Of a DNA stretch of 46,518 bases, positions 4,186-38,711 are shown in pieces. Below the pieces are notes generated by a model. The model had not been told where the DNA came from and searched no databases. It worked only from the letters and a program-made list of their open reading frames with translations. The DNA comes from a candidate division WOR-3 bacterium (GTDB taxonomy: Bacteria; Hydrothermota; Tepidihabitantia; SM23-42; JAOAFX01), in NCBI GenBank assembly GCA_037444665.1, contig JBBILZ010000012.1, forward strand, positions 1 to 46,518, given 5' to 3'. The translations under genes were made by a program, and so were the position numbers. Each line of letters begins with the position of its first letter. Within the stretch, counting starts at the first letter, position 1.

Positions 4186-4797
4186 TCAAATTAAATTCAA
4201 TTTTTTAAGCATAATTTCCAAACTTGAATTATCCGGTAACAAGAGAAAGAATGCCGAAAGTGGTTTATTAAAATCGCCAAAATCAAACTGGGTCTCAATA
4301 CAGAAAATGAAGTCCTTCTCATTCCCGAATTCCACAATAACACTTGAAAGAACTGCGCCCACCATATCAATGATCATCCCTGGCACTGAGGGAAGAATCA
4401 ATAAGCCCAATAGGTCACCAAGGGCATTCATATAAGCACACGATAGGATATTTGATACTTCCTTCAATAGTGATTCCTGAAGTTCAATGGTATTCTCCTG
4501 GTCTTCAGGCATCAATAATTTTGTCAATTCCTGGGCATCATCATAAGGATAAATGAGCAGAGTTCTACCAGTGAGGTCACCAAGAAAATATAATAAAACT
4601 GAAGCCACCACATCATTCGGGTCAGCAATCTTTAGAATTACTTCCTCAAGCTGTCCAGTATATAGTTTAGGGACTCTAATCATCACCTTTTTCCCTAAAA
4701 GCTGGGATAAAGATGTTGCTGCATGGCCGCCACCAATATTTGCAATTTCAGTCAATGCATCAATTTGTTTTTCTGTAAGATTTTTTGCATCAATCAT
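4186..4797 (-). CDS. cheC: Chemotaxis phosphatase CheC
   Basis: Two ExxN motifs: DALTEIANIGGGHAATSLS and LLKEVSNIL. Overlaps the cheA stop. Confidence 0.9.
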   Translation of the reverse strand: MIDAKNLTEKQIDALTEIANIGGGHAATSLSQLLGKKVMIRVPKLYTGQLEEVILKIADPNDVVASVLLYFLGDLTGRTLLIYPYDDAQELTKLLMPEDQENTIELQESLLKEVSNILSCAYMNALGDLLGLLILPSVPGMIIDMVGAVLSSVIVEFGNEKDFIFCIETQFDFGDFNKPLSAFFLLLPDNSSLEIMLKKLNLI

Positions 4798-6302
4798 TCA
4801 AAACCCCTTGGTTCAAGAATTAAAATAGGTTTACCATCGGCATAGACAGAACATCCTGAATATAAAGAAGAAGGTAATAGTTTATCTGCCTTCTTTACCA
4901 CAATCTCCTGTTCATCAATAATTTCATCAGTCACAAATCCCCTTTTTTTACCTTCATAATCAACCACAATGACTGATTTTTTTCTTGATTTATGTGAAAA
5001 ATTCAATTTTTCTCCTATGTTAACCAAAGGCAGAATGTCATCTCTTAACTTCAAAAGGTCGCGCTTATAGACCCTTTGCACACTATTTTCATCAATATAG
5101 AATGACTCCCGAATATAACTTAATGGTAGTGCGAAGCGCTGGCCACCAAGACCAAAAATGATGGCTCTAATAATTGCGAGGCTGATGGGCAGCTCAATGG
5201 TAAATTTAGAACCCTTGCCTTTTTCAGATTCAATTTCTAAGTTCCCACCCAACTCACCCACTAACGAATGGACAATATCAAGCCCGATTCCCCGTCCTGA
5301 AACTGCTGAGACATCCTTTTTCGTAGAGAAATCTGGCCTCAGCAAAAATTTATACAAATCTTCTTTGCTCAATTTTTGCGCTGATGTCTGGTCAATCAAT
5401 TTCCTCTCCACAACCAATCTACGAATTTCTTCTACATCAATACCCCGACCATTATCAATTACACTGATTCTTATGAATTCACGCTCTTTGGTTGCCTGTA
5501 ATATGATCTTACCTTCTTTTTCAATACCATGGTCAAGCGCATTACGCAAAAGATGCATAATTGGTTCTTTGAGGACATCAATGATTGAACGGTCAACCTC
5601 AACTTCTCCACCAATCATCTGAAAATCAATTTCTTTGTTCTGTCTCTTTGCTTCATCTCTTAACCAGCGCGGGAAAAATTCAAAGACGGTCGTTAATGGC
5701 AGCATCCTCAATCGTGCCACTTCATCCTGTAATACTGCAATTAGTCTTGAAGCAGTCTCGCTGAGCGTCTGTAATTCAATACTGCCCATCTCTGAACTTA
5801 TTTTATTTAATCTTGACCGGACAATAAGCAGTTCATTTGTAAGATTGAACAATGTATCAAGCTTTGCCATCTTAATTTTTATTTCACCCATCTCCTGTGT
5901 TGCGGTTATTGATTTTTCAATGGCAACCTCTTTACCTTCTTTAATATCCTCGCAGGTCTTCAACAGCATCTCAGTAGATGGCAACATACTTTTGTTCTTT
6001 AAAGCCTTTATAAAATTACTCAGAAAATCGGTAATCACAAAGATAAAATCAACGACCCGTTTATCAATTTCACCTTTTGTCTTGGGTTCAGAGAGTAAAT
6101 CTTCTATTGAGTGAGTAAGATTACCTAAATCTTCAAAACCCATTGTTTGTGCCATCCCTTTAATTGTATGCAAAATTCTGAAAACTTCAAGAATTGCCTT
6201 ACGATTTTTGGTATTCTTTTCAAGATCTAAAAGTTCACGGTCTAATTGTTTTATATAAGATTCAATTTCACTAATAAAAAGGTCTAAATATTCTTCCATC
6301 AT
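4794..6302 (-). CDS. cheA: Chemotaxis histidine kinase CheA (no P2 domain)
   Basis: HPt FRILHTIKG, HLLRNALDHGIE, DNGRGID, SGRGIGLDIV, C-terminal CheW-like domain; only 502 aa. Confidence 0.95.
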   Translation of the reverse strand: MMEEYLDLFISEIESYIKQLDRELLDLEKNTKNRKAILEVFRILHTIKGMAQTMGFEDLGNLTHSIEDLLSEPKTKGEIDKRVVDFIFVITDFLSNFIKALKNKSMLPSTEMLLKTCEDIKEGKEVAIEKSITATQEMGEIKIKMAKLDTLFNLTNELLIVRSRLNKISSEMGSIELQTLSETASRLIAVLQDEVARLRMLPLTTVFEFFPRWLRDEAKRQNKEIDFQMIGGEVEVDRSIIDVLKEPIMHLLRNALDHGIEKEGKIILQATKEREFIRISVIDNGRGIDVEEIRRLVVERKLIDQTSAQKLSKEDLYKFLLRPDFSTKKDVSAVSGRGIGLDIVHSLVGELGGNLEIESEKGKGSKFTIELPISLAIIRAIIFGLGGQRFALPLSYIRESFYIDENSVQRVYKRDLLKLRDDILPLVNIGEKLNFSHKSRKKSVIVVDYEGKKRGFVTDEIIDEQEIVVKKADKLLPSSLYSGCSVYADGKPILILEPRGFE

Positions 6303-7208: not shown

Positions 7209-10200
7209 TCACACACAATAAAGGTTACGAAAACGGACAATGCCAAATGGGTCAACAACAAAACCTTTGATGTCCTTCTTAACCGCATAACAATCAACTC
7301 CGTGAGACAAAAAGACCCAGAGCGCATTGTCAACAATCCATTTTTCTATTTTCTGATATAATTCAATGCGGCGACGCGGTAACTGTTCAGAACGTGCAGA
7401 CTCAATCATTTTATCAAGTTCTTCATCAGAATAGAAAGACGTGTTGCCACTGGCACCAAAACTATGAGAATGGAAAAGCGTATAGGTGAAATTGTCTGGG
7501 TCGCCATTATCTGAAACCCAACCCCTTAAACTCATTATACTATTGCCACTATAAGTTTTTTCCAAAAATTCCTCCCAGGATAAAGGATTGATTTGAAGAT
7601 GGATGCCGATCTTACCGAGCGAATCCCTTAAAAATTCTGCCCTTTTTACTGAATCCTTGCCAGTTCTCACATCAAGCACAAAAGTATCGGGTATGCCTGC
7701 ACCGTACCCTGCCTCTTTCATCAGTTCCCTTGCCTTTTTAAGGTCATAAGGGTAACCAATTATGTTATTGTTATATCCGGGCAATCCTGGTGGATAAACA
7801 CCACGAGCAGGGATTGCTTTTTCTTTAAGTAATTCGCGACAATAATATTCTTTATCTATCGCATAATTCATTGCCTGGCGCACACGCACATCTAAAAATG
7901 GAGATTTTTTAGAAAAGTTGACGGTGAGATATTGAGTGGAAAGCACTGAACCTGAACAGATATCTTCTGGTGAAAATTCCTTTAGCATATCTGAAGTCAA
8001 ATTCAATATTGATATCTCACCTGCCTTAAATAGTTCTAATGCCTCTTTATCATCGGCAACCTTTTTGATGATACATTCATCAATGTAAGGTCTGCCATCA
8101 AAAAAATCATCAAATGCCTCAAGAATAACTTCTTTGTCTTTTTCGTAAGAAATCAACTTAAATGGACCACATCCAATTGGGCTCTCTGTATTCCAATCCT
8201 GCGGCACAATATCACCAACACCGCAGGCAAGGTTTGCAAGAAATGGAACATAAGGGAATTTCAACATAAATCTAATATGATACGGGTCTATTACTACAAT
8301 ATCAGAGAGATACTCAAAAAAATTCGCATTTGGTCCCTTTTTCACACGATTTAAAGAACTGAGCACATCTTTAGCCAGAACCTCTACACCATTGTGAAAT
8401 TTTACCCCTTTCTTTATATAAAAATCCCAAATTCTACCATCTTCAGAAACAGAAAATGAACGGCCAACAGCAGGAATTAAATGATTTAACTGGTCAAATG
8501 TATAAAGACCTGTGAATATCTGTTCAATAACCTGATGGCTTGTTGTATCAGTTCTAATAGCAGGGTCAAGGACAATCGGGTCTTCTGTTGTCCGAAAAAC
8601 GATTCTCTTTTTCTCCGCAGGTATGAATGTAATCTCTTTTTTAAATTCCTGAACAACACCCGCCATCTCTTTTGTCAATGCCTTTTCTGATTTTATTGTT
8701 TCATTATAGGTGACAAAATATTCACTTATTTTTTTATATTCAGATTCAAAATTCCGATGGTGCTCTCCGAGCAGACCACACTGGCTTATCATCTGCTCTG
8801 TAGAACCGAGCATTTCCTGACAAAGGGCTGAAAGATTATCAATAACTTTAATACTTTCATTCACCGCAACTAAAGAGGTATTTAAGGCATCCTGCCCTAA
8901 TTCTACATCTCCCAAGCCTCTAATAAAACAGGAAATGAGCACCTTAAAATCCTTCATAATTTCATTTTTTAAAACATCAATACTTGCGACAAACTCTAAT
9001 GACCTTACGGAAAGCGTTTTTATCTCATTAGTCACCACCTCAAGTGCACTCGCATATTCACCACTTCTGGCACTTTCAATACCAGCATATAATCCGAGTA
9101 ATTTAGAGCGCTCAGTAATTCTTTTTAACTCCTGTAATGGTTTATCAACTTTGTTAATAAGTTCCTTTAACTTATATGATTTATTATTTAAAGAACTGAG
9201 TAATTCTCTAATATCCTGATAAAATACTTTAGCCCTGGAAAGTGTCTCATTGGCAAAATTATGTGTTTTTGACCAGGACTTTATCCTTTCTGTAATCTGT
9301 ATAATAATTTCATTAAGATGTTTAGCTTCAGCAACAAATTGAAGAATAAATCTTTCTGCAGAATACAGGTCAAGTTTTTTAAATGCGCCACCCACCAACT
9401 TATCAAATCCCTCTTCTATTTGCGGTTCGTTCTCTAATATTTTACTGAATGTATTAAAGAAACAATTAAAATTATAATCATCGTCTACTGTCATCAAATT
9501 ATTCTTAACATTATTTAAGTGTTGAAAAAATGCTCCTAAAAATATTTCAGTTATTGCTGTAGTTCTTGTTATATTATATATCTCTTCCAGATATACGGGT
9601 AATTTTTCACTTTCCTGATGCAAATTTGTATGCAATTCTTTCTGTGTCGTAATAGTTTTAGATACATCTTTTATTGCATTTTCAAGATAAGGGACTAAAT
9701 TGAGTAATTCATTATTTATATTTATAAATTTTTCTGCAATCTCTTTTAAATAATCTATTACACCCTGAATTTTCTTTAAATCCTGTGCCAATTCCTCAAC
9801 CCCAATGATTAATTCATTGATAATAGTAGGAATGGTTTTCGTAGGTTTTTGTGAATGGCGCACCAGACCTGTCATTTCTCGGGCTATCACTTCAAACCCT
9901 CTACCCTGTCTGCCCGCATGATAGGCGGTGATCCCGGCATTGCGAGAAGCAACTTCAATTGACTCGGATACAAGTCCAATATCCTGAATTATTCCACCAA
10001 GTTTATCTGCCTGCTGGTGAATTTTCTTAAGAATATCTGTTATATTATTGAGGTCAAAACTGACCTTCTCTGATATGGTAAGCGAATCATTAAAATTTTT
10101 AATACTTTTTTTTAGCAGTTCATGTGTTTTTTTGATTTCATTATCAAATACTGCGACTCCTTCAAAAACGAGCTCTACGGTGACAGATAGATTATAGAAC

Positions 10201-10352
10201 CTTTGGCGGATTTCAACGAGAAGTTCTGAACTGATCTGAAGCGTATTATCAATATTTTGACCAGTATTTAAAAAATTATGGAAGTTCGCATCATATTGTG
10301 ATAACAAAGGCTTAAGCCTTGCGATAAATTCTTCGCGAAAACCATTATCCAT
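7209..10352 (-). CDS. Soluble chemoreceptor-like protein: two MCP signalling hairpins fused to a family-5 (Opp/Dpp-type) solute-binding domain
   Basis: Hairpins ASRNAGITAYHAGRQGRGFEVIA and KLLGLYAGIESARSGE. SBP_5 motifs LDPA, GVKFHNG, PIGCGPF, VRQAMNYAID. Start ATG 10352. No TM segment or signal peptide seen. Confidence 0.85.
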   Translation of the reverse strand: MDNGFREEFIARLKPLLSQYDANFHNFLNTGQNIDNTLQISSELLVEIRQRFYNLSVTVELVFEGVAVFDNEIKKTHELLKKSIKNFNDSLTISEKVSFDLNNITDILKKIHQQADKLGGIIQDIGLVSESIEVASRNAGITAYHAGRQGRGFEVIAREMTGLVRHSQKPTKTIPTIINELIIGVEELAQDLKKIQGVIDYLKEIAEKFININNELLNLVPYLENAIKDVSKTITTQKELHTNLHQESEKLPVYLEEIYNITRTTAITEIFLGAFFQHLNNVKNNLMTVDDDYNFNCFFNTFSKILENEPQIEEGFDKLVGGAFKKLDLYSAERFILQFVAEAKHLNEIIIQITERIKSWSKTHNFANETLSRAKVFYQDIRELLSSLNNKSYKLKELINKVDKPLQELKRITERSKLLGLYAGIESARSGEYASALEVVTNEIKTLSVRSLEFVASIDVLKNEIMKDFKVLISCFIRGLGDVELGQDALNTSLVAVNESIKVIDNLSALCQEMLGSTEQMISQCGLLGEHHRNFESEYKKISEYFVTYNETIKSEKALTKEMAGVVQEFKKEITFIPAEKKRIVFRTTEDPIVLDPAIRTDTTSHQVIEQIFTGLYTFDQLNHLIPAVGRSFSVSEDGRIWDFYIKKGVKFHNGVEVLAKDVLSSLNRVKKGPNANFFEYLSDIVVIDPYHIRFMLKFPYVPFLANLACGVGDIVPQDWNTESPIGCGPFKLISYEKDKEVILEAFDDFFDGRPYIDECIIKKVADDKEALELFKAGEISILNLTSDMLKEFSPEDICSGSVLSTQYLTVNFSKKSPFLDVRVRQAMNYAIDKEYYCRELLKEKAIPARGVYPPGLPGYNNNIIGYPYDLKKARELMKEAGYGAGIPDTFVLDVRTGKDSVKRAEFLRDSLGKIGIHLQINPLSWEEFLEKTYSGNSIMSLRGWVSDNGDPDNFTYTLFHSHSFGASGNTSFYSDEELDKMIESARSEQLPRRRIELYQKIEKWIVDNALWVFLSHGVDCYAVKKDIKGFVVDPFGIVRFRNLYCV

Positions 10353-10360
10353 ATATGTTA

Positions 10361-10388
10361 ATTTTATTAAATTTTTGCCACTTGTCAA
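10361..10388 (-). promoter_or_regulatory. Sigma70-like promoter for the chemoreceptor-cheW genes
   Basis: TTGACA-N16-TAAAAT; ATG follows 8 nt later. Confidence 0.6.
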
Positions 10389-10396
10389 TGGGAAGT

Positions 10397-11293
10397 TTAG
10401 ATGAGAAAAATAATTGTAACACCACAAAGTGCAATGATTGTGCCAATTATTGAAATATAGGTGATTCTTTCTTTAAAGACCCAGTGCGAAATTGGTATAA
10501 GGATTACTGGCGGTAATGCCATCAATGTTGATGCGATTCCTATATAAGCATACTGAATTGCTACTAAGGAGAGCCAGACTCCGATGAATGGACCGAAGAC
10601 CGCACCACCAAGCATTGCCAAATCTGCCTTTTTATTGACCAATTTACTCAGAGTCTTTTTTGTCTCTCCCTGAAAAAGAGTTATTAACCAGATGAAAATT
10701 GCGCCAAATAGCACTCTAATTAAATTGCCTGAAAGTGCTGAAAAATCATTAAGCAGGAGCCCTTTTTTTGAAGCAAAATAGCCAAGAGCCTGGCATAACG
10801 AAGCCAAAATTCCGCAGACCACTCCCGTAAAAAAATTTCCTTTCTTTGTGTTTTCGCTCGTTTTGTCATAAAGAACCATAATGATGCCGCAAATTGTAAT
10901 AATAATTGCAACAATTTCTAAGAAACTCAAAGATTCTTTAAGGAATATCCAAGCTAATACAGTTCCAAAGATAGGAGAAAGTGACATCAATAGCATAGTC
11001 AGACGAGGTCCAATCAGAACATATCCACGAAACAAAAATGTATCACCAATAGTGAATCCGATTACACCGGAGATACCAAACCAGAACCAGTGGTATGGCT
11101 GGGCATTTAAAGGAAGCACCATCCCGGATATGAGCCAGTGCGTAAAAATTAAAAAAAGCATACCCAGAACGAGCCTGATGCGGTTGACCTCAGTTGAGCC
11201 AATCAACCGGGAAGCGATTGTAAAAAATACAGAACCAAATGACCAGCAAAATGAAGTTCCCAATGCAGCAAATTCACCAATATACCTGTTCAT
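10397..11293 (-). CDS. DMT/EamA family transporter
   Basis: About 10 hydrophobic helices in two EamA repeats (GFTIGDTFLF, LSPIFGTVLAWIFLKE, FKERIT). Confidence 0.9.
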   Translation of the reverse strand: MNRYIGEFAALGTSFCWSFGSVFFTIASRLIGSTEVNRIRLVLGMLFLIFTHWLISGMVLPLNAQPYHWFWFGISGVIGFTIGDTFLFRGYVLIGPRLTMLLMSLSPIFGTVLAWIFLKESLSFLEIVAIIITICGIIMVLYDKTSENTKKGNFFTGVVCGILASLCQALGYFASKKGLLLNDFSALSGNLIRVLFGAIFIWLITLFQGETKKTLSKLVNKKADLAMLGGAVFGPFIGVWLSLVAIQYAYIGIASTLMALPPVILIPISHWVFKERITYISIIGTIIALCGVTIIFLI

Positions 11294-18044: not shown

Positions 18045-19325
18045 ATGTTAAATTTTCTTAGTGGCGGAATATACCTGGGCAAACAGAAAGATCTAATGAA
18101 TTCAGGCATTGAGGTAATGCCTATGCCAAAAAAAGTATATATTCCGTTTATTCAACATCAAGGGAAACCTGCTATTCCTTTAGTCAAATCAGGCGACATC
18201 GTGCAAATTGGTGCAAAGATTGGTGCAGCAGATGGTGACCTATCCGCACATATCCATTCAAGCATCTCTGGAAAAATAATTGATATAAAAATGCATCCAC
18301 ATCCACTACTCGGTGAAGCACTATGCTGTGTCATTGAATCTGACTATTCTGAAAATTGGGAACACCATTTTATTGATACTGACCATCACTCACTTACTAA
18401 GCAAGAACTCTTAGACCGAATAAAGGAGGCAGGCATTGTGGGATTGGGTGGTGGCGCATTTCCTACGAATATAAAACTTTTATCTGGTGCTGAAAAAAAA
18501 ATAGACTTTTTGATTATAAACGGTTCTGAATCAGAACCAAATCTCTCTGCTGATTACCGTATGATGCTTGAATACCCAATGTGTGTAATAGAAGGTGCGA
18601 GAATTATTCAAAAGATTATTGGTGCGAGGGACTTAATCTTTGCCATTTCAAAGACCTATAGACCGGCAGCAGATTTATTCAAAAAAGAAGGTGTCAGGGT
18701 ATTGATTGTTCCTGATAAGTTTCCACAGGGTGCAGAAAGATTATTGATTAAAAAAATTACCAGGAGAAATGTTCCAATTAATAAATTACCCGTAGACATA
18801 GGCTGTATGGTTCATAATGTCAGTACCTGTTATGCAGTATTCCAGGCAGTAAAATACAAAAAACCCCTGATTGAAAGGGTCATCTCTGTGAGCGGTGATG
18901 CAATAAATGAACCAAAAAATATTTTAGTGAGGCTGGGCACTCCAGTCTCTGATATTATCCAATTTTGCGGCGGCATAAAAGGAAATTTAAAAAAGGTCAT
19001 ATTTGGTGGTCTGATGACTGGTATTGCCCAATTTTCCCTTGATACACCAGTGATAAAACAGGTTAATGGTATTGTGTTCCAATCAGAAATAGCCGAACCT
19101 GAGATAAAGGATTGTGTTCGCTGCTCTGCGTGTATTGATACCTGCCCAATGAACCTGTTACCTAATGTGCTCTTCTATAACATAAAACAGGATAAATTAG
19201 ACCAAGCGTATGAATATGGTCTGAGTGAATGTATTCAATGTGGTTGCTGTTCTTATGTATGTCCGGCGAATATTCCTCTCTTACATTATTTTAAATTTGC
19301 AAAGATGAGAACCGCAAATGGATAA
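18045..19325 (+). CDS. rnfC: Rnf electron transport complex subunit C
   Basis: AHIHSSISG, AGIVGLGGGAFPT, two 4Fe-4S motifs (CVRCSACIDTCP, CIQCGCCSYVCP). Confidence 0.93.
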   Translation: MLNFLSGGIYLGKQKDLMNSGIEVMPMPKKVYIPFIQHQGKPAIPLVKSGDIVQIGAKIGAADGDLSAHIHSSISGKIIDIKMHPHPLLGEALCCVIESDYSENWEHHFIDTDHHSLTKQELLDRIKEAGIVGLGGGAFPTNIKLLSGAEKKIDFLIINGSESEPNLSADYRMMLEYPMCVIEGARIIQKIIGARDLIFAISKTYRPAADLFKKEGVRVLIVPDKFPQGAERLLIKKITRRNVPINKLPVDIGCMVHNVSTCYAVFQAVKYKKPLIERVISVSGDAINEPKNILVRLGTPVSDIIQFCGGIKGNLKKVIFGGLMTGIAQFSLDTPVIKQVNGIVFQSEIAEPEIKDCVRCSACIDTCPMNLLPNVLFYNIKQDKLDQAYEYGLSECIQCGCCSYVCPANIPLLHYFKFAKMRTANG

Positions 19326-20310
19326 TTTACTTATTGTATCATCATCGCCCCATATCTTATCAAGGAAGACCACAGGTCGTGCAGTATCCATTGTCTGCCT
19401 TGCACTCCTCGCCTCTCTGGTCTTCAGTATATTCAATTTTGGAATATACGCTTTGATTGTTGTTATCTCCTGTATTGCTTCCTGTGTAATCTCTGAACTA
19501 ATCTATGAATATTTTAGAAAAAAGCAGATAATTTATGATGAAACTTCTATTTTAACCGGGATGCTTCTGGGAATGAGTCTACCACCTGCTGTTCCTTTAT
19601 GGATACCGATTACTGGTGGTGCTTTTTCAATAATACTTGTCAAAAAAATTTTCGGTGGCTTGGGATTTAATATTTTAAATCCAGCACTAACAGGCAGGGC
19701 ATTCTTGATGTTCAGTTTTCCGGGGTTGATGACCACTGCCTGGCACAATCCATTTAATGGAACAATTTCTGGTATTGATACAATTACTCAGGCAACACCA
19801 TTAACGATTCTGAAAAATCCTGGCTACTATGGAGATGCAGGGACCATTATTAATAATTATAATTCTTTCAGTTTTTTAAAGATTTTATTCCTTGGTAATA
19901 TCGGTGGGTCTATTGGTGAAACCTGTAAACTGACCATAATTTTTGCGGGAATCTTCCTGCTATTTTTAAAAATCATTGATTATCGGATTATTCTGGGCTA
20001 TGTTCTAAGTTTTCTCTTGTTAAGTGCATTACTATTCAATAAAGTAAGCCCGCTCTTCTATCTATTTTCTGGTGGTCTTTTAATTGCAATATTCTTTATG
20101 GCAACAGACTGGGTCACGACACCACTAACAAAGAATGGTAGGTGGATTTTCGGCATTGGCTGTGGCATTCTTACCGTGGTCTTAAGATTATATTCTATTT
20201 TTCCTGAAGGGGTTACCCCGGCAATACTTATTATGAATATCTGCACGCCATTTATTGACCGAATCACCATTACAAAAAGGGTAACAAAAATAAATGGGAA
20301 AAATTATTGA
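19318..20310 (+). CDS. rnfD: Rnf subunit D
   Basis: SSPH, FGGLGFNILNPAL, FMN site DTITQATPL, GSIGET, FMATD. Confidence 0.93.
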   Translation: MDNLLIVSSSPHILSRKTTGRAVSIVCLALLASLVFSIFNFGIYALIVVISCIASCVISELIYEYFRKKQIIYDETSILTGMLLGMSLPPAVPLWIPITGGAFSIILVKKIFGGLGFNILNPALTGRAFLMFSFPGLMTTAWHNPFNGTISGIDTITQATPLTILKNPGYYGDAGTIINNYNSFSFLKILFLGNIGGSIGETCKLTIIFAGIFLLFLKIIDYRIILGYVLSFLLLSALLFNKVSPLFYLFSGGLLIAIFFMATDWVTTPLTKNGRWIFGIGCGILTVVLRLYSIFPEGVTPAILIMNICTPFIDRITITKRVTKINGKNY

Positions 20311-20334
20311 AAAAATAATAATCAGGAGGTCAAA

Positions 20335-21228
20335 TTGAAAAAGTCAATCTTAACTATAGTTTTTCTGCTGGTCAGTATTCTATTTCTGACCATAATAAAT
20401 TTTTATACAATGCCACTCATTGCCCAGACCGAGACTCAAAAATATATCAATATTCTTAAAAGAGTAATGGATGCTAATGAATTCATTCCCATAATTCCTG
20501 ATACAGTATTTCAGGCGTTTGATTCGTCAAAAAATTTAAAAGGGATTGTATTCAAAGTATGGAGCAGAGGATATATTGGAATTATTCCCATTACAGTGGG
20601 CATTAATCTTGAAGAGAAAATAACAGGAATCTATATCGGTGGTAAAAGCGAAGGATTTAAAGAAACTGAAGGACTCGGCTCAAAAGTAAGGGAAAAAGTA
20701 TTTATTAATCAATTTATTGGAAAAGATATCTCTCAAATCTCTTTAAAAAAGGATGGTGGTGAAATAGATGCAATAACCGGGGCGACAATTTCATCAAAAG
20801 GGGTTTGTGAAGGTATAAAAAATGGACTACAGAAATATAGCCAATTTTTGGCACAATGTAAAACAGATGACCCAAAATGTCAAATTTTTCCTGAGGCAAA
20901 AAATTTTATTGAGGTAATAAAAGACACACTCTGGTATGCACTGGCATATCCTGAGACACTCGGTATTGTATTCAATGGACAGACATTTGGATATCTTGAT
21001 GCCATAAAATATATTGTGGGAATACGCAAAGATGGAATGACTGAAAAAATTATAATCACTTACTCAAAAGAAACCGAAGGTATTGGTGAACAGATAAGGA
21101 ACCCTGAATTTCTTGAAAAATTTAAAACCGGTATGCCTGATGCCATCTCCGGAGCAACCATCTCTTCACAGGCTTTAATTAAAAGTGTCCAGGCGAACAT
21201 TGAAAAGTATAAAGAATATCTGAAATGA
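20335..21228 (+). CDS. rnfG: Rnf subunit G with two FMN-binding domains
   Basis: N-terminal TM; ETEGLG..DAITGATISS and ETEGIG..DAISGATISS; AGGAGG RBS before the TTG start. Confidence 0.88.
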   Translation: MKKSILTIVFLLVSILFLTIINFYTMPLIAQTETQKYINILKRVMDANEFIPIIPDTVFQAFDSSKNLKGIVFKVWSRGYIGIIPITVGINLEEKITGIYIGGKSEGFKETEGLGSKVREKVFINQFIGKDISQISLKKDGGEIDAITGATISSKGVCEGIKNGLQKYSQFLAQCKTDDPKCQIFPEAKNFIEVIKDTLWYALAYPETLGIVFNGQTFGYLDAIKYIVGIRKDGMTEKIIITYSKETEGIGEQIRNPEFLEKFKTGMPDAISGATISSQALIKSVQANIEKYKEYLK

Positions 21229-21800
21229 ATAATAATTCAAAAACCAATGATTTATTGATTATTATTGGTTTGATACCTTTTATTGCACTCACCAATTCAG
21301 CAATCAATAGTCTCTCTATCGGTTTAGTTGTCATTATTGTCTTTATCATCTCCAGTATTATTGCCAACCTTTTTAAAAAGTATCTCATCAAATCTAATAG
21401 CACAATTATTCTGATTATTATTTCTGCAACAATTGCCAGCCTCATTGACCAGTTTATGCAAATCCATATACCATCAGTGCACAGCGAAATAGAACTATTC
21501 TTACCACTCACTGCTGTGAGCAGTTTTCTTTTTAACTATATAAACAATTTCAAAAATACCGATGAAACATTATCATTTACTTTTAATGGCGTAAAAAAGT
21601 GGTCAAAGATCTCATTAATTTTTCTTGTGGTTGGTATGGTCAGAGAAATTTTCGGCAGAGGAACACTATTCAATCAACCAGTGCTAAGTTCTGACCCGGC
21701 AGCAAATCCACTAATCATTTTAGGCGCACCATCTGGTGCGTTTATAATAACTGCATTTGTCCTGGCAATATTTTTCAAGGTAAAACGAAAAAATGAGTGA
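21225..21800 (+). CDS. rnfE: Rnf subunit E, divergent and cysteine-free
   Basis: REIFGRG and PSGAF motifs plus operon position; no Cys in the protein. Confidence 0.8.
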   Translation: MNNNSKTNDLLIIIGLIPFIALTNSAINSLSIGLVVIIVFIISSIIANLFKKYLIKSNSTIILIIISATIASLIDQFMQIHIPSVHSEIELFLPLTAVSSFLFNYINNFKNTDETLSFTFNGVKKWSKISLIFLVVGMVREIFGRGTLFNQPVLSSDPAANPLIILGAPSGAFIITAFVLAIFFKVKRKNE

Positions 21801-22371
21801 TACATTAATATCAATATTCATCAAAAATATAACTGTAAATAATATAGTATTATATTCACTCTTAGGTATCTGTCCATTAATATTATACCAGTTGAGTATC
21901 AAAGAATGTCTAACTATCGGTATTATTACTACTGCGATTATGCTCATTAGCACCTGGTTTACAATGTTAATCCACCATTTTCTGATAATACCATTGAACC
22001 TCAGCTACCTGAAGATTTTCGATTTTATAATCATAACATACCTGATAATAGAGTTAATAAAGACCATTATCAATAAATTGAATTCTCCTTATGCAGAAAT
22101 ATTTAATGCCTATCCAGAGTTTTTTCAAACAAATTTTGCAATTTATGGTTCAGCCTTTTTGAATATAAATTCCAGTTTTAATTTTTTGAACATCACGGTA
22201 AATACACTCGGTGTCGGGGTTGGATATTTAATATTATTACTAATTTTTAATTGTATAAAAGAAAGATTTAATAATAAGCAAAATTTATCACGAACAGATA
22301 GATTATTAGTTGATCTCGTCGTCCTGGGGCTGATAAGTCTGGTGTTTGTTGGCGCGATTGGTTTAAGGTAA
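21793..22371 (+). CDS. rnfA: Rnf subunit A, divergent
   Basis: NNIVLYSLLGICP, GVGY, IKER; the canonical TNC motif reads TNF. Confidence 0.8.
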   Translation: MSDTLISIFIKNITVNNIVLYSLLGICPLILYQLSIKECLTIGIITTAIMLISTWFTMLIHHFLIIPLNLSYLKIFDFIIITYLIIELIKTIINKLNSPYAEIFNAYPEFFQTNFAIYGSAFLNINSSFNFLNITVNTLGVGVGYLILLLIFNCIKERFNNKQNLSRTDRLLVDLVVLGLISLVFVGAIGLR

Positions 22372-22376
22372 TTGCT

Positions 22377-24311
22377 ATGCCTTCAAAAGAGATTACTGAT
22401 TTTGAAAAAGAACTGAATAAAGAGCAATGGCAGGCAGTCCAGATATTAAATGGTCCATTACTTATTCTTGCTGGAGCAGGCAGTGGCAAAACCCGTGTGA
22501 TTACCTACCGCATTGCCTATCTTATTTCAAAGGGAGTAAATCCTTTAAATATCCTTGCGGTCACATTCACCAACAAAGCTGCAGACGAAATGAAACAGCG
22601 CGTGTGCAATCTTCTAAACAATGAAAACCCAGATATCTGGATAAGAACATATCACTCCACCTGTGCAAGGATTTTGCGAAAAGAATCACATCATATCGGT
22701 ATAGATACAAATTTTACAATCTACGATGAAGCAGACCAATTGTCCCTTGTAAAAGATTGCCTCAGAGAATTGCTGCTGGATATTAAAGAATTAAAGCCTG
22801 ACTTTATCCTTCAATGTATAAATCGTGCAAAGGAAAATCTTGTTAACCCGAATAATTATCATTCTCCTGTATATAACCAATATGGTAATATTATCAAAAC
22901 AGTATACAAACTATATAATCAGCGGTTGCAAGAATGCAATGCCCTTGATTTTGATGACCTGATTCTAAAGACAGTTGAACTCTTTAAAAGCAAATCCGAT
23001 ATTCTTGAATATTATCAGGATAGATTCAGGTATATTCTGGTTGATGAATATCAGGATACCAATCATGCCCAGTATGTATTTACTAAATTACTCGCACAAA
23101 AATACCGTAATCTTTGTGTTGTTGGAGACGATGACCAGTCAATATATTCCTGGCGCGGTGCAGAAATCAAAAATATCCTTGATTTTGAAAAGGATTATCC
23201 AGAAACAAAGATTATAAAACTGGAACAGAATTATCGTTCCACAAAAATAATTTTAAAGGCTGCTTCTGAAGTCGTAAAAAATAATCGTGGCCGTAAGAAA
23301 AAAGTGCTCTGGTGCAAAAATGACATTGGTGAACCAATTGAATACTATGATGCACATCATGACAAAGAAGAGGCTGAATATGTTGCAGAAAAGATCTATC
23401 AAGAACATCTCCGTGGCACTGATTTCAATGAAATTGCAGTATTCTACCGCCTCAATTACCAATCAAGAATTTTTGAAGAATGTTTTGCCCAGAATAGAAT
23501 ACCTTATGAAGTGGTCGGGGCATTGAAGTTTTACGAGCGTGCAGAAATAAAAAATATGCTCGCATATTTGCGGGTAATCAATAATCCGAAAGATAATATC
23601 TGTCTCAAACGTATCATAAATCTCCCCGCAAGAAACATTGGTAAAGAAACGCTTGATAAGTTGGTCACTTATCAAAAAGAAAGGAACATAACGCTTTTTG
23701 AAGCACTGAAAAGATGTGCAGAAATAAAAGATTTACCACAAAATAAAATTGGTCACATAAAATCATTTGTTAAAATGATGGATGAATTTATAGAGCTGAG
23801 TAAAAAACTTAATCTCTATGACTTGGCACTGCGTATTGCTAAAGAGTCAGGTTACCTTGAATTTCTTAAACGGAGGCAGACTGAAGAAGAGATTGACCGT
23901 CGGAAGAATGTGGAAGAACTGCTCATTTCCATTAATGATTATGTAAAAAATAATCCGCAGGCATCAATTGCGGATTATCTGGAAGGTATAACATTAAAAA
24001 GTGATATTGATGAGTGGTCAAATGAAAAGGTATCTTTGATGACCCTGCACAATGCCAAAGGGCTTGAATTTGATGTCGTATTTATAACCGGATTAGAAAA
24101 AGGAATCATCCCGCACTATAAATCACAGGAAGAAGGAAGGTACGAAGAAGAACGAAGATTATTGTATGTTGGTATTACCCGGGCAAAGAAAAAATTATAT
24201 ATGACAAGGGCTAATGCCCGCAAAACATATACAGGAAATCTTTCTTTTACCACAAAATCACCATTTTTAGAGGAAATACCCGATGAAGTCTTTGCTACAA
24301 CCACCAGATAA
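22377..24311 (+). CDS. pcrA: UvrD/PcrA superfamily 1 DNA helicase
   Basis: AGAGSGKT, VDEYQDTN, VGDDDQSIY, QNYRS, HNAKGLEF, EERRLLYVGITRA. Confidence 0.93.
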   Translation: MPSKEITDFEKELNKEQWQAVQILNGPLLILAGAGSGKTRVITYRIAYLISKGVNPLNILAVTFTNKAADEMKQRVCNLLNNENPDIWIRTYHSTCARILRKESHHIGIDTNFTIYDEADQLSLVKDCLRELLLDIKELKPDFILQCINRAKENLVNPNNYHSPVYNQYGNIIKTVYKLYNQRLQECNALDFDDLILKTVELFKSKSDILEYYQDRFRYILVDEYQDTNHAQYVFTKLLAQKYRNLCVVGDDDQSIYSWRGAEIKNILDFEKDYPETKIIKLEQNYRSTKIILKAASEVVKNNRGRKKKVLWCKNDIGEPIEYYDAHHDKEEAEYVAEKIYQEHLRGTDFNEIAVFYRLNYQSRIFEECFAQNRIPYEVVGALKFYERAEIKNMLAYLRVINNPKDNICLKRIINLPARNIGKETLDKLVTYQKERNITLFEALKRCAEIKDLPQNKIGHIKSFVKMMDEFIELSKKLNLYDLALRIAKESGYLEFLKRRQTEEEIDRRKNVEELLISINDYVKNNPQASIADYLEGITLKSDIDEWSNEKVSLMTLHNAKGLEFDVVFITGLEKGIIPHYKSQEEGRYEEERRLLYVGITRAKKKLYMTRANARKTYTGNLSFTTKSPFLEEIPDEVFATTTR

Positions 24312-31686: not shown

Positions 31687-32463
31687 TTAAGATTCTCCTG
31701 ACAATTCTAAAGAAACTTTTTCTACAGTTTTTCTAACTTTTTCAATATCCTCTATATTATCAATTATCGGCTTAAGATAATTTTCGCTAAAAACTACAAA
31801 GCCATTTTTGAGTAGAATAAAATATTTGCGAAAAGAATCTAATGCCTTTACATAGCCATTTTTATCCTTAACTCTGGGACTTTCACTTCTTCTTACGAAT
31901 TCTTCAATATTGAAAACAGCATACGGAATGGTAATTACAGTCTTCTTGCTCCCAGCTGTTCGCGCTTCTTTTCTTTGGCTTATCTTAGATACTTGAAAAT
32001 TAATCTCATTAACTTTTGCATCTATTCCTTTAACATCCAGTTCTGCATTACATTCAAGTCGCAAGTTCTTATTTTCTTTTGCGCAGACATACTCAAACAT
32101 ATAACAAAAGTCTAACTGCGTGAGAACTGAAACCCAGGTTCTATACATTCTGGCTTTGAATCCTTTCTTAAACCAACCATCATTGTCTTTATCAAAATAG
32201 TACTTCTTAAATTGCCTAAGTGCTCCTTTACTTTGAGGTTCTGTATTAATTTCTTCCCAAAAAGTTTCAAACCAATCTTCAAAACTTAAAAATTCTCTTG
32301 TTTCCCAGTAATACTTGAAAATTGATGCCAGCGGCAATATTTCTTTAGGTAAATTCTGTTCTACCCATTTAATATCTTTTAATTCTTCTCTATATTTATC
32401 CAGCGGGATGCTTTCAAGAAATTTACGATATTTTCCAAAGTCTTCAATGGGATTTTTCTTCAT
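31687..32463 (-). CDS. TaqI-family type II restriction endonuclease
   Basis: IKWVEQNLP, ARMYRT..S..TQ.DFCY, ELDVKGIDA, IPY and NGFVVF parallel R.TaqI as recalled. ATGA overlap with the MTase stop supports ATG 32463. Confidence 0.88.
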   Translation of the reverse strand: MKKNPIEDFGKYRKFLESIPLDKYREELKDIKWVEQNLPKEILPLASIFKYYWETREFLSFEDWFETFWEEINTEPQSKGALRQFKKYYFDKDNDGWFKKGFKARMYRTWVSVLTQLDFCYMFEYVCAKENKNLRLECNAELDVKGIDAKVNEINFQVSKISQRKEARTAGSKKTVITIPYAVFNIEEFVRRSESPRVKDKNGYVKALDSFRKYFILLKNGFVVFSENYLKPIIDNIEDIEKVRKTVEKVSLELSGES

Positions 32464-33881
32464 AATTTTGCCTCTCTTTTTATCTTTTGCCATTCTCTTT
32501 TATTTGGTAAAGGTAAGTTTTTTAATTGAGTAATACTTAAATGATAAGTTATTTCTCTATAAGTATCTTTCACATATTTTCTTAAATATTCTGAGTTAAG
32601 ATATTCAACCACCTCTGAATCATTTAAATCATATTCAACCGTAAACAAATCACTTTTTCTTAAAAGATGGTAAACATCTCCCATCCAGGGGTAACATTTC
32701 CCATCAATTGCAGCAGCAACTTTCCCATTTTCTCGAAACCCTAATCCGACTACAATATGAGGAATAGAAAAATATGTGCGAAGTTTCTTTGCATCTGTTT
32801 TTTTAATCCAGTAGCCTGTAAAGTTATCATAGATAATTTTCCCACATTTTAGATTTCTACCATTCAAAAGTGGGAAATAATTATTTTTGTTGGTTCCTTT
32901 ATAGTTTTCATTTTTTATTATGTAATCATTATTTTTTATTTCCGGGGTCCTTGGAGAAATTCTTATTTCATAAACATCTTCTAACTTATAAGAACAATTA
33001 CTCTCTAAGGTGCTGGTCCAATCTGTCTCAAACTTAATCACTTCACCTTGCCAGTTAGAGTCCATTTTTATTGTCCTAATTTTGTTGTCTCTATATTCTA
33101 AAAATTCTAATCTATGAACAAACCTATCAGATCTAATAAAATTTAACACAACCGATGAAACATCTGCCTCTGGTTTAAATATATCTGGTCCCATATAGAT
33201 TATTGCGGTTCCTCCATTTTGAGATAAAAAAGTTCTCAGTTTTTTAAATTCATCGAGAATCATAAATGTTGCAGGAATAATAAAAATTAGTTGTCCTTCA
33301 GGCTTAAGCAATTTAATGGATTTCTCTATAAAGGCACCGTAAACATTGTATTTTCCATACCAGGTTTCATAAAGACTTTTATATCTTTCTTTAGTAGAAC
33401 TGTCCACTTTGATTGTATAATGATCAGAAAGACTTGGAATGCCATAAGGTGGATTTCCTATTATTAAATCAAAAAAGAATGATGATTGCCATAAAAGATA
33501 ATCAGCATTAATTATCTCAATATCATTTCCAATATTTACAGTGGCTAAATAATTGACAATGTCTCGATTAATTTCTACACCAAAGAGTTTTGCTTTTTTG
33601 AAAACAGCGGGCAAATTCCTTTTTATTCCGATTAGAAACTGTGCCAAACCACAGGCAGGTTCTAATATGGTAATACCCTTCTTATCAAAAAATTTAGCCA
33701 CATCAATAAGGTTAACCATAAAATCAACGACCCATTCCGGAGTGAAAAACATTCCATAATCTTTCTTGATACTTTTTAGATTGTCATTCACTATGCATTG
33801 ATGGACTTTGTAGTCCACCAATGCTTCTTCTCTCACCAGTAATGGTTTGTATCTGTTTTGCCGATATTTTATCTTTTTCAT
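32460..33881 (-). CDS. TaqI-like N6-adenine DNA methyltransferase (gamma class)
   Basis: TPEWVVDFM, LEPACG, GNPPYG, GKYNVYGAF and GRNLK parallel M.TaqI as recalled. Confidence 0.92.
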   Translation of the reverse strand: MKKIKYRQNRYKPLLVREEALVDYKVHQCIVNDNLKSIKKDYGMFFTPEWVVDFMVNLIDVAKFFDKKGITILEPACGLAQFLIGIKRNLPAVFKKAKLFGVEINRDIVNYLATVNIGNDIEIINADYLLWQSSFFFDLIIGNPPYGIPSLSDHYTIKVDSSTKERYKSLYETWYGKYNVYGAFIEKSIKLLKPEGQLIFIIPATFMILDEFKKLRTFLSQNGGTAIIYMGPDIFKPEADVSSVVLNFIRSDRFVHRLEFLEYRDNKIRTIKMDSNWQGEVIKFETDWTSTLESNCSYKLEDVYEIRISPRTPEIKNNDYIIKNENYKGTNKNNYFPLLNGRNLKCGKIIYDNFTGYWIKKTDAKKLRTYFSIPHIVVGLGFRENGKVAAAIDGKCYPWMGDVYHLLRKSDLFTVEYDLNDSEVVEYLNSEYLRKYVKDTYREITYHLSITQLKNLPLPNKREWQKIKREAKL

Positions 33882-37236: not shown

Positions 37237-37713
37237 TTATTTTAATGTTGCTATCCAATCACCAATAAAATGGGTAATGATGATGACCACAATGGCAATC
37301 AACAGATGTTCGCCAACAACCCGCCAGGGATTTGTGCCCTGTTCCTTACCCATTGCAAAACTGAAGAGTGTTATCAAAAGCAATCCCCATAAGACACTTA
37401 TGATAATTGCAACGGATAACGAGAATAACAATACCGGTATCAAAAATGTCAGGGCAAAGAAGAATTTGGCAAAAAAGGTCATCAAGGTTGATTCCCAGAT
37501 CTCATTTGTAGTATGTTTATTTTCTGATTCCTCAGAAATATGGATACCAAGGGCATCAGAAAATGCATCAGCAATTGCAATGGTCAGAATACCACCGATA
37601 ACCACAATCTTGGAATGGGTCCCGGAATGTAACCCCACCATCAAACCCAGGGTTGTTATAATCCCGGATGTTGAACCAAAACTAAAACCCGTTTTTAAAG
37701 AATGTTTAAGCAT
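37237..37713 (-). CDS. VIT1/CCC1-like membrane protein
   Basis: FGSTSGIITTLG, IAIADAFSDALG. Confidence 0.75.
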   Translation of the reverse strand: MLKHSLKTGFSFGSTSGIITTLGLMVGLHSGTHSKIVVIGGILTIAIADAFSDALGIHISEESENKHTTNEIWESTLMTFFAKFFFALTFLIPVLLFSLSVAIIISVLWGLLLITLFSFAMGKEQGTNPWRVVGEHLLIAIVVIIITHFIGDWIATLK

Positions 37714-37719
37714 AAATCC

Positions 37720-37835
37720 TTTCTGGTCTTTTTGGTCTATTTAGTCTTTTTGGTCTTTCTGGTTTATTTAGTTTATTTGTTTCCGTCCTCGTTTCTTCGT
37801 ATCGTCCCATCTTCATATCCCCGCCTCCTTCTTTC
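37720..37835. repeat. 9-bp tandem repeat block plus shorter repeats
   Basis: About six degenerate TGGTCTWTT units at 37723-37780. Confidence 0.75.
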
Positions 37836-38711
37836 TCATACCTCTATCCCAAACACCTTTCTCATAATTATCCCGATTAAAAAATTGATCACTGCAACAG
37901 CAAGACTTATTCCTGCCATCTCTAAGAATCTATCTTTAAATTTCAGCCCTTTGGCAACTGAGACATAATAATTAAAGAAAAAGATTAAGAAGAGCGCAGT
38001 GAAGATTGTAAATATCAGGCACAAAAATATATGCTGCAACAAAAAATATGGCAGAACCAGGAGTATTATTGTTCCAAGATAGGCGATGCCTGTGTAGAGA
38101 GCCGACTTTATGGGAATTTTTTCTGATGACTCTTCCTTTGCAGAAAGATACGAAGAGGAGCCCATTGACAAAGAACCAGCAATACCAGTAATCAATCCTA
38201 CAATCCCTACAATCTGTGATTTCTGTAATGCTAAAGAAAATCCTACCAGTGCCCCACTTATTTCAACAAGGGCATCATTCAAGCCAAGAACAATTGAACT
38301 CACATACTTCAATCGCTCTTCTTTAATAAGGGTTATTAGTTCCCTTTCATGCCTGTTTTCGTCCTGGATAATCCCATCTATTGCTGGTGCAACCTTGCGT
38401 ATCCCATCGTATGACTTTTGTGCAAGGTCTTCACCCTTTTCCATAAGTTTTAAAATAAAGTTCAAACCAAATAATCGTGCCAAAATTGTATAAAAAGATA
38501 CCCTGAATCTATTGGGAATAAGTTCTTGACCAGTCAGGCTTTTAAAAAAATTATAATGGCTCATCTCTTCATCGGCAATATGCAATAGAATTTTTGAATG
38601 TTCCTGATTTTTATTAAACTTTGCGAGATTTCGGTATATATGATATTCGTTCAACTCACCCTGCTGACTCTTGATTATCTTATCTTTAATTTCTGATGGC
38701 AATTTCTCCAT
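37836..38711 (-). CDS. Rubrerythrin/ferritin-like domain fused to a VIT1/CCC1 transporter (MbfA-like)
   Basis: ExxH motifs (DEEMSH, DENRHE), VLGLNDALVE, SLSMGSS. Confidence 0.88.
   Translation of the reverse strand: MEKLPSEIKDKIIKSQQGELNEYHIYRNLAKFNKNQEHSKILLHIADEEMSHYNFFKSLTGQELIPNRFRVSFYTILARLFGLNFILKLMEKGEDLAQKSYDGIRKVAPAIDGIIQDENRHERELITLIKEERLKYVSSIVLGLNDALVEISGALVGFSLALQKSQIVGIVGLITGIAGSLSMGSSSYLSAKEESSEKIPIKSALYTGIAYLGTIILLVLPYFLLQHIFLCLIFTIFTALFLIFFFNYYVSVAKGLKFKDRFLEMAGISLAVAVINFLIGIIMRKVFGIEV

Follow-up and report, generated by a model that had tools for sequence, protein, structure and literature searches.

In the Rnf complex of Acetobacterium woodii, a [2Fe-2S] cluster within the membrane is bound by C25 and C113 of RnfA and by C25 and C108 of RnfE (Kumar et al. 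2025, PMC11889175). According to the same study, the B8 domain of RnfB (residues 30-100) inserts between RnfA and RnfE and reduces this cluster, the model has RnfA/E as the route of Na+ pumping, with the cluster in control, and Cys mutants of AE1 or of the RnfB B8 cluster abolished both ferredoxin-dependent NAD+ reduction and autotrophic growth. Structural work on Rnf and Nqr regards the RnfA/E membrane [2Fe-2S] cluster as central to both electron transfer and Na+ pumping, and a 2025 review calls the membrane cofactors of these systems "strictly conserved" (PMC12174285). Here we describe an rnfC-D-G-E-A operon that departs from this pattern. It lies in a 46,518-nucleotide stretch of DNA from a candidate division WOR-3 bacterium (contig JBBILZ010000012.1 of assembly GCA_037444665.1), which we refer to as a whole as the window; the genome that carries it (G000) is 99.5% complete.

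Three of the four Cys that bind the membrane cluster have been replaced throughout the source genus, and RnfB has lost its N-terminal part throughout the family, while the mapped cofactor residues of RnfC, RnfD and RnfG are all retained. Sequence comparisons thus give good support to the proposal, made in the initial annotation of this DNA, that the ferredoxin arm was dismantled and the NAD(H)-RnfC-RnfD-RnfG arm kept. We lean, if only slightly, towards the reading that this is a derived Rnf without ferredoxin input that would now act as a one-path, non-pumping conduit between NAD(H) and a periplasmic or extracellular partner.

Loss of the membrane [2Fe-2S] ligands

RnfE and RnfA were aligned by phmmer to the subunits of three solved complexes (A. 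woodii 9eri, C. tetanomorphum 7zc6 and A. vinelandii 8ahx). Both proteins aligned end to end with the 7zc6 and 9eri subunits, and without gaps against 9eri. The ligand positions C25 and C108 of RnfE correspond to I17 and S100, and C25 and C113 of RnfA correspond to C27 and F115, which leaves RnfA C27 as the only cluster Cys. RnfE contains no Cys at all, and RnfA contains three (positions 27, 39 and 154), of which only C27 is conserved in the genus. The initial annotation had noted from the letters alone that RnfE has no Cys and that RnfA keeps LGICP but reads TNF for TNC, and its statement that two Cys each from RnfA and RnfE bind the membrane cluster agrees with the ligands named in PMC11889175. 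Neither the Cys content nor the genus alignment revealed a substitute ligand set for the [2Fe-2S] cluster in RnfE or RnfA. Position 17 of RnfE is variable in the genus (I, T, L or M), and the second-ligand region of RnfA has been remodelled into a PEFF(Y/Q)TN(Y/F)A motif. The set of four Cys in RnfA and RnfE that defines Rnf is therefore incomplete. An AlphaFold model of RnfE, built with 11 genus sequences, reached a mean pLDDT of only 53 and was not used for structure searches.

RnfE was detected in 40 of 41 related genomes, and ligand states could be read from 30 aligned loci, 12 from the genus and 18 from outside it. Within the genus, the first RnfE ligand was lost in all 11 members with readable sequence and the second in 12/12 (Ser in 11, Pro in one); the second RnfA ligand was lost in 12/12 (Tyr in 10, Phe in two), and the first was Cys in 10/12 and Ser in 2/12. 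Outside the genus, all four Cys were present in 18/18 aligned loci. A loss common to 12 independently assembled genomes is explained neither by chance nor by assembly error.

An N-terminally shortened RnfB outside the operon

No rnfB occurs in the rnf operon, and no complete rnfB was found in the genome. The RnfB model matches many ferredoxins, and among them a single protein exceeded the cut-off (TIGR01944, 88.5 bits vs. 68.7), the 238-aa product of an rnfB-derived gene on contig C39. This protein is the orthologue (E 1e-95) of a 342-aa RnfB that is encoded within the operon in a sister family. It lacks the first ~98 residues, which comprise the membrane helix and the single-cluster PF04060 domain; the alignment shows a clean N-terminal deletion, and the DNA upstream codes for a small unrelated protein rather than for the missing N-terminus. 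Of the RnfB features that characterize Rnf (membrane helix, mobile PF04060 domain and polyferredoxin), only the polyferredoxin is left. The genome has single copies of rnfC, rnfD and the rnfA/E pair; no second rnfA/E pair was found in it. The initial claim of "no rnfB" hence stands for the operon, and it needs correcting only for the shortened gene on contig C39.

The shortening extends across the family. RnfB was matched in 38 of 41 related genomes, with no match in three genomes of one family. In 16/16 genomes of the source family, the match began no earlier than residue ~91-101 of the 342-aa reference and ran to residue 341, and in two other families 21 of the 22 matched genomes encoded a full-length RnfB (the remaining match begins at residue 37). 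The genes flanking rnfB are alike for short and full-length forms, which indicates that the truncation occurred in place.

The sole PF04060 domain in the genome sits in a hydrogenase-like sensor protein of 422 aa, and in 5/5 other family genomes examined this domain was likewise confined to a sensor of ~423 aa. The 422-aa protein (contig C36, locus L011, 1480-2748, minus strand) carries two ferredoxin motifs, a hydrogenase-like core and the PF04060 domain at its C-terminus, and is conserved across the family. It looks like a sensory hydrogenase-like regulator. Its gene is flanked by what we take to be genes for an anti-sigma-type ATPase, a DRTGG-like protein and a PHP-domain protein.

Retained cofactor sites and the predicted electron path

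RnfC contains GLGGGAFP at residue 133, CVRCSACIDTCP at 357 and CIQCGCCSYVCP at 396, and it thereby keeps the NADH/FMN site and both CxxCxxCxxxCP motifs for 4Fe-4S clusters. All eight motif Cys are invariant in 12/12 aligned orthologues. RnfD carries the flavinylation-type motif DTITQAT at residue 154, with the Thr kept in 14/14 orthologues, and the published riboflavin ligands N123 and D249 (9eri_D) align to conserved NP and FMATD(W) residues; both the covalent-FMN Thr and the riboflavin-site residues are thus in place. The RnfC motifs and the RnfD Thr had already been listed as retained in the initial annotation. As a separate observation, a Cys is shifted around residues ~198-205 of RnfD, where relatives have GGC.GETSA and 9/9 genus sequences have GG(S/A)IGETCK.

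RnfG has two Pfam FMN_bind matches, with DAITGAT at residue 145 and DAISGAT at 269. The A. woodii residues T185 and Y113 have their counterparts in T151 and Y80, and T275 marks the second site; RnfG therefore keeps its covalent-FMN Thr and belongs with the multi-flavinylated RnfG proteins, which have more than one FMN domain with the motif. An AlphaFold model (pLDDT 88) shows a transmembrane helix (residues 2-44) followed by two like domains (49-172 and 190-296), and its best match in the Protein Data Bank is 7zc6_G (TM 0.75 on target). The search for the flavin transferase ApbE that the initial annotation had suggested was positive. ApbE is encoded in the source genome and was present in 10 of 12 genus genomes, having been missed in G007 (85% complete) and G009 (98% complete).

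Taken together, these sites suggest a chain in which electrons would pass from NADH to RnfC (FMN and two 4Fe-4S clusters), to RnfD (riboflavin site and covalent FMN) and on to RnfG. The two covalent FMN domains of RnfG would sit on the membrane's outer face, and the second would serve as the exit or entry point. RnfA and RnfE would have been retained for the assembly and positioning of RnfD and RnfG, and electrons could flow either from NAD(H) to the outside partner or from the partner to NAD(H). If Na+ is pumped through RnfA/E under cluster control, as in the A. woodii model (PMC11889175), the complex of this genus would not pump.

A chain that is under selection must have a second partner. 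At RnfG this could be an outside acceptor or donor, and at RnfD a membrane quinone; the third candidate is ferredoxin, through a rewired link. We favor the outside partner because of the spare outward flavin domain, and because of two published proposals. Multi-flavinylated RnfG has been proposed to open an additional route to acceptors outside the cytosol (Meheust et al. 2021, PMC8238504), and two-subunit NQR/RNF-like systems with RnfD-like and RnfG-like proteins have been proposed to move electrons in the outward direction only, with NAD(P)H as the source (PMC8238504; bioRxiv 10.1101/2024.03.13.584918).

The quinone alternative would be a convergence on NQR, in which a membrane quinone takes up the NADH electrons from RnfD. 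In its favor, RnfD and NqrB are homologues, and the riboflavin-site residues of RnfD are kept. However, none of the five UbiA-family genes matched the MenA/UbiA equivalog at E <= 1e-10 (the futalosine pathway was not searched), and the genome has no second Rnf-Nqr gene pair. Of its two FAD_binding_2 proteins, one is an L-aspartate oxidase; the other, a flavoprotein resembling fumarate reductase, reaches none of the family cut-offs and lacks a partner that bears a signal. The quinone search was limited and is no proof that quinones are absent, and we consider an exit to quinone very improbable.

Distribution and order of events

Three other members of the family differ from the source genus. 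G012 keeps four Cys despite a short RnfB. In G013, which belongs to another genus of the family and is 67% complete, the first RnfE ligand and the second RnfA ligand are lost. G014 (a further family genus, 89% complete) has the RnfB remnant, and type-1 rnfE was not detected in it. These states would fit a series in which rnfB was short with the ligands kept, then two ligands were lost, and then three. We infer that rnfB truncation preceded ligand loss, which possibly arose more than once; this order takes family and genus labels as the phylogeny, without a rooted species tree. On such an order, the unlinked rnfB would first have lost in place, in the whole family, the codons for the membrane helix and the mobile single-cluster domain, and RnfE and RnfA would then have lost three of the four membrane [2Fe-2S] Cys in the source genus.

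When 1.84 billion representative proteins were searched with the genus RnfE profile, only 11 matched at E <= 1e-30, followed by a sharp fall to canonical sequences, which indicates that this specific form of RnfE is restricted to about the source genus. Among the best 150 matches, a list that is biased to Cys-less sequences, 106 had both RnfE Cys, 10 had the genus form and 34 others were without one or both. Those 34 (P0023, P0034, P0037, P0069, P0072, P0087, P0097, P0103, P0127, P0137 and 24 more) fell as singletons or pairs on a quick tree; they were read from an automatic alignment without genomic context, and some may be artefacts. All Cys were present in 76 of 80 loci from species-representative genomes, and a further locus was flagged merely for a cut-off RnfA, leaving two genus members and one other metagenome-assembled genome (locus L133) as true exceptions. 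It is possible, judging from these alignments, that RnfE/NqrD ligands have been lost independently elsewhere in uncultured lineages, but such losses would be rare. L133 comes from a different phylum; its RnfE/NqrD-type protein has Ser for the first ligand (GLSPL), and the paired subunit has GGSSL.

A second, canonical rnfCDGEAB operon in the sister genome G008 (locus L056, contig C48) was considered as a coexisting Rnf type and rejected. It encodes a single-domain RnfG and a full-length RnfB, its GC content is 41.5% vs. 36.5%, and the flanking genes lack close counterparts in the source genome; the GC offset and unmatched flanks point to a probably mis-binned contig. A further canonical rnfCDGEAB copy (L057, on the 2.4-kb contig C261 of G015), likewise with single-domain RnfG and full-length RnfB, is subject to the same doubt.

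Selection on RnfA and RnfE and the weighing of alternatives

Several observations weigh against the proposed conduit, and we consider them here together with the alternatives that they would favor. With regard to the outside partner, the initial annotation had also proposed a transmembrane conduit to an extracytoplasmic partner. The conduit is still the best reading of the locus, but it remains inferential, since scans for CXXCH motifs, FMN_bind, Tat signals and FAD_binding_2 found no extracytoplasmic donor or acceptor linked to RnfG. No open reading frame with at least two CXXCH motifs, as expected of a multihaem cytochrome, was found in the genome, and RnfG is its sole FMN_bind-domain protein. 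A crude regex screen for Tat signals combined with Pfam returned only a family-less 285-aa protein and a radical-SAM protein, with Sec-dependent proteins left unscreened. In addition, the two-domain RnfG occurs order-wide, also in lineages with all four Cys; it predates the loss of the cluster and is thus no adaptation specific to that loss.

The RnfB remnant is itself highly conserved. Its identity to 17 aligned orthologues is 58-76% (60-68% where these are full-length), and each of its six CxxCxxCxxxC-type motifs is invariant. The C-terminus of RnfC, which binds RnfB in A. woodii (PMC11889175), is conserved here as well, and together these features suggest that some ferredoxin link may persist. 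The complex could then still be ferredoxin-coupled, with the soluble six-cluster remnant docking either on RnfC or on RnfA/E from the cytoplasmic side and handing electrons to NAD+ without their traversing the membrane, which would give a non-pumping, membrane-tethered ferredoxin:NAD+ oxidoreductase. Such docking would be in line with the RnfB score above the TIGR01944 cut-off, with the A. woodii polyferredoxin being held by a C-terminal helix of RnfC, and with the four Cys that G012 keeps beside its short RnfB. However, the nearest RnfB and RnfC clusters are >30 A apart in the solved complex, and direct transfer between them was judged unlikely (PMC11889175). RnfD and RnfG would be superfluous on this route, yet their flavin residues are all kept and their constraint equals that of RnfC, and the remnant in G014, without detectable type-1 rnfE, suggests that it can be independent of Rnf. 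A predicted complex of RnfC with the remnant scored 0.11 against a mark of 0.32 and carries no weight either way. We regard a persisting ferredoxin route as unlikely.

Constraint on RnfA and RnfE has changed markedly. Mean identity within the genus is 65% for RnfC, 64% for RnfD, 64% for RnfG, 42% for RnfE and 49% for RnfA, vs. 58, 63, 50, 70 and 78%, respectively, in canonical relatives; RnfA and RnfE have moved from the best- to the worst-conserved subunits. This raises the alternative that the operon is a slowly decaying relic, in which the whole complex became dispensable after the loss of RnfB and RnfA/E decay first. The scores of RnfE and RnfA far under their family cut-offs and the loss of two ligands in G013 are consistent with decay, as is the dN/dS of 0.55 for RnfA in the closest pair (G000-G008), which stems from only 5 synonymous and 10 non-synonymous differences and likewise counts against a functional conduit; RnfE has 0.10 in this pair. 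In four mid-diverged genus pairs (Nei-Gojobori method), dN/dS was 0.21-0.29 for RnfE, 0.16-0.23 for RnfA, 0.12-0.18 for RnfC/D/G and 0.05-0.08 for PcrA, the helicase encoded next to rnfA. As the proportion of synonymous differences (pS) was near 0.5-0.67, these ratios are, if anything, overestimates. Decay is further opposed by the absence of any relaxation in RnfC/D/G, by five intact genes in fixed order in every genus operon examined and by a 94%-identical strain from another study that spans the operon with zero gaps (this comparison used contigs only, and two of its data sets, X2 and X3, seem to be one filed twice). rnfA and rnfE are not pseudogenes and are under purifying selection, with dN/dS mostly 0.1-0.3. 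None of the findings that the initial annotation had named as fatal to its proposal turned up: there are no alternative ligands and no complete rnfB, and rnfA/E do not evolve neutrally (intact in 12/12). That the operon is a mere relic appears quite improbable.

For RnfA, constraint is not only relaxed but redirected. We identified 24 genus substitutions, each present in 10-12 of the 12 members against another residue shared by 15-18 of 18 outsiders, and 28 columns that are invariant across 12 species; this combination also argues against decay. Eight of the 24 changes are to Tyr or Phe and two to Glu (M21Y, V32Y, A83Y, L110F, I111F, C115Y, L118Y, F145Y, T38E and P109E), including those in the rebuilt PEFF(Y/Q)TN(Y/F)A motif. 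The suggestion that RnfA/E serve as "scaffold only" consequently holds less well for RnfA, whose role it understates.

It is conceivable that RnfA/E were rebuilt around the former site, either to house a cofactor that contains no iron or to let ions pass independently of redox chemistry. Were this so, the complex might still be ion-coupled without Fe-S, for example in NADH-to-outside export coupled to ions, and without the cluster that is deemed indispensable for Rnf/Nqr pumping. The Tyr/Phe/Glu changes are non-random and genus-fixed, and they include the half-helix that formerly bore the ligand. Nonetheless, without the mobile domain of RnfB no donor could reach the site, the surrounding part of RnfE shows poor conservation (as at position 17), and aromatic filling of an empty cavity is a simpler account of the same pattern. 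We hold such rebuilding to be rather improbable, and the retention of a two-path or ion-coupled mechanism in the RnfA/E cavity to be highly so. The one-path NADH conduit remains the reading we prefer.

Gene layout and other observations

Proteins of the window were assigned to families by NCBIfam (TIGR) cut-offs and Pfam (Table 1). The junctions along rnfC-D-G-E-A-pcrA measure -8, +24, -4, -8 and +5 nt, all five rnf genes are intact, and rnfC-D-G-E-A are translationally coupled; the initial gene calls and coordinates, including pcrA 5 nt downstream, were correct. RnfA and RnfE score far under the NCBIfam cut-offs, which marks both as strongly diverged, though each exceeds the broader Pfam PF02508 (Rnf-Nqr) cut-off.

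Table 1 Genes of the rnf operon and its downstream neighbor in the window.
Gene	Position	Strand	Product	Family score
rnfC	18045-19325	+	ATG start, 426 aa; cytoplasmic NADH/FMN subunit, two 4Fe-4S motifs	TIGR01945, 455 bits (cut-off 246)
rnfD	19318-20310	+	330 aa; membrane flavin subunit; Pfam PF03116 only	TIGR01946, 259 bits (cut-off 207)
rnfG	20335-21228	+	TTG start; membrane-anchored periplasmic subunit, two FMN-binding domains	110 bits, above NCBIfam cut-off
rnfE	21225-21800	+	cysteine-free, both [2Fe-2S] ligands replaced (I17, S100)	TIGR01948, 81 bits (cut-off 213)
rnfA	21793-22371	+	first ligand kept (C27), second replaced (F115)	TIGR01943, 99 bits (cut-off 229)
pcrA	22377-24311	+	helicase; downstream neighbor, outside the Rnf complex	TIGR01073, 810 bits

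In seven further genus operons examined, the five rnf genes were intact and in unchanged order, and rnfA was followed by pcrA in all of them (7/7). An aminotransferase gene was also present in six of these seven loci; in G005 the contig stops inside pcrA. At 5/5 main rnf operons examined outside the genus, pcrA was not found at this place.

Elsewhere in the window, a 1072-aa protein (7209-10427, minus strand) combines a methyl-accepting chemotaxis signalling domain with a family-5 solute-binding domain, and its gene adjoins CheA-like (4794-6302) and CheC/CheX-like (4186-4797) genes. A TaqI-type restriction endonuclease gene overlaps a gene for an Eco57I/TaqI_C-type N6 methylase (31687-33881, minus strand). 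Two adjoining genes of the VIT1 iron-transporter family (37237-38711, minus strand), which are either fragments or paralogues, lie ~15 kb from the rnf genes, and we claim no link to rnf; the N-terminus of one product is rubrerythrin-like. A full-length serpin (425 bits; 42990-44213, minus strand) adjoins proteins with type IX secretion sorting domains. Outside the window, the radical-SAM protein returned by the Tat screen (contig C101, locus L190, 397-1545, minus strand; 382 aa) has an apparent twin-arginine signal, TRRQFIKSLVGIG. Such a signal is unusual for this class of enzymes.

Comparison with known systems

Compared with canonical Rnf (9eri, 7zc6, 8ahx), the locus shares the rnfCDGEA order, RnfC, RnfD and RnfG above their cut-offs, and the mapped cofactor residues of these three subunits. 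It differs in that three of four [2Fe-2S] ligands are gone, RnfA/E fall far below the NCBIfam cut-offs, rnfB is unlinked and reduced to a soluble six-cluster remnant, and RnfG has a second FMN domain. Because two defining cofactor features, the four Cys and a full RnfB, are lacking, the complex is not a functional member of the Rnf family as judged by its cofactors. Scoring "Rnf present" by gene presence would credit this lineage with ferredoxin-driven ion pumping that it very probably lacks. In the open-access literature text (supplementary tables excluded), we found no report of a natural RnfA/E without the cluster Cys or of an N-terminally shortened RnfB.

Na+-NQR has homologous core subunits and is a historical precedent for the loss of rnfB from an rnf-derived operon (PMC12174285). 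In Na+-NQR, NqrF replaced RnfB, the NqrD/E cluster was kept and NqrA is cofactor-free. Here, by contrast, no replacement of RnfB was noted (no search was aimed at NqrF), RnfC keeps its cofactors and the site of the cluster has been lost. The subunits also score best as Rnf and RnfC has its Fe-S motifs, so that the complex is not a Na+-NQR.

Rnf clusters with multi-flavinylated RnfG (PMC8238504) have, like the present locus, an RnfG with more than one FMN domain carrying the ApbE-type motif. As those clusters are described there, the additional flavins form a branch of a complete Rnf, whereas here the ferredoxin path is gone and the branch would be the sole outlet; the text consulted makes no mention of missing RnfB or missing RnfA/E Cys in those clusters. 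The two-subunit NQR/RNF-like systems (Meheust 2021; Huang et al. 2024) share the proposed logic of NAD(P)H feeding an RnfD-like protein and then an RnfG-like outer flavoprotein. Their RnfD-like protein is fused to PF00175 and lacks a conserved flavinylation Thr, and RnfC, RnfA and RnfE are absent; the present locus has a separate RnfC, keeps RnfA/E and the RnfD Thr, and has no PF00175 fusion.

The complex is neither a two-subunit NQR/RNF-like system nor an NQR, and would work most like the two-subunit type while descending from a full Rnf. A lineage that has lost the cluster and the feeder piece of RnfB, with its subunits still selected, offers a natural test of other roles of RnfA/E, and of the RnfC-RnfD-RnfG half alone as an NADH-linked transmembrane wire. 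The stages seen in the family resemble steps on a path that leads from a full Rnf to the minimal NQR/RNF-like systems with one-way transfer.

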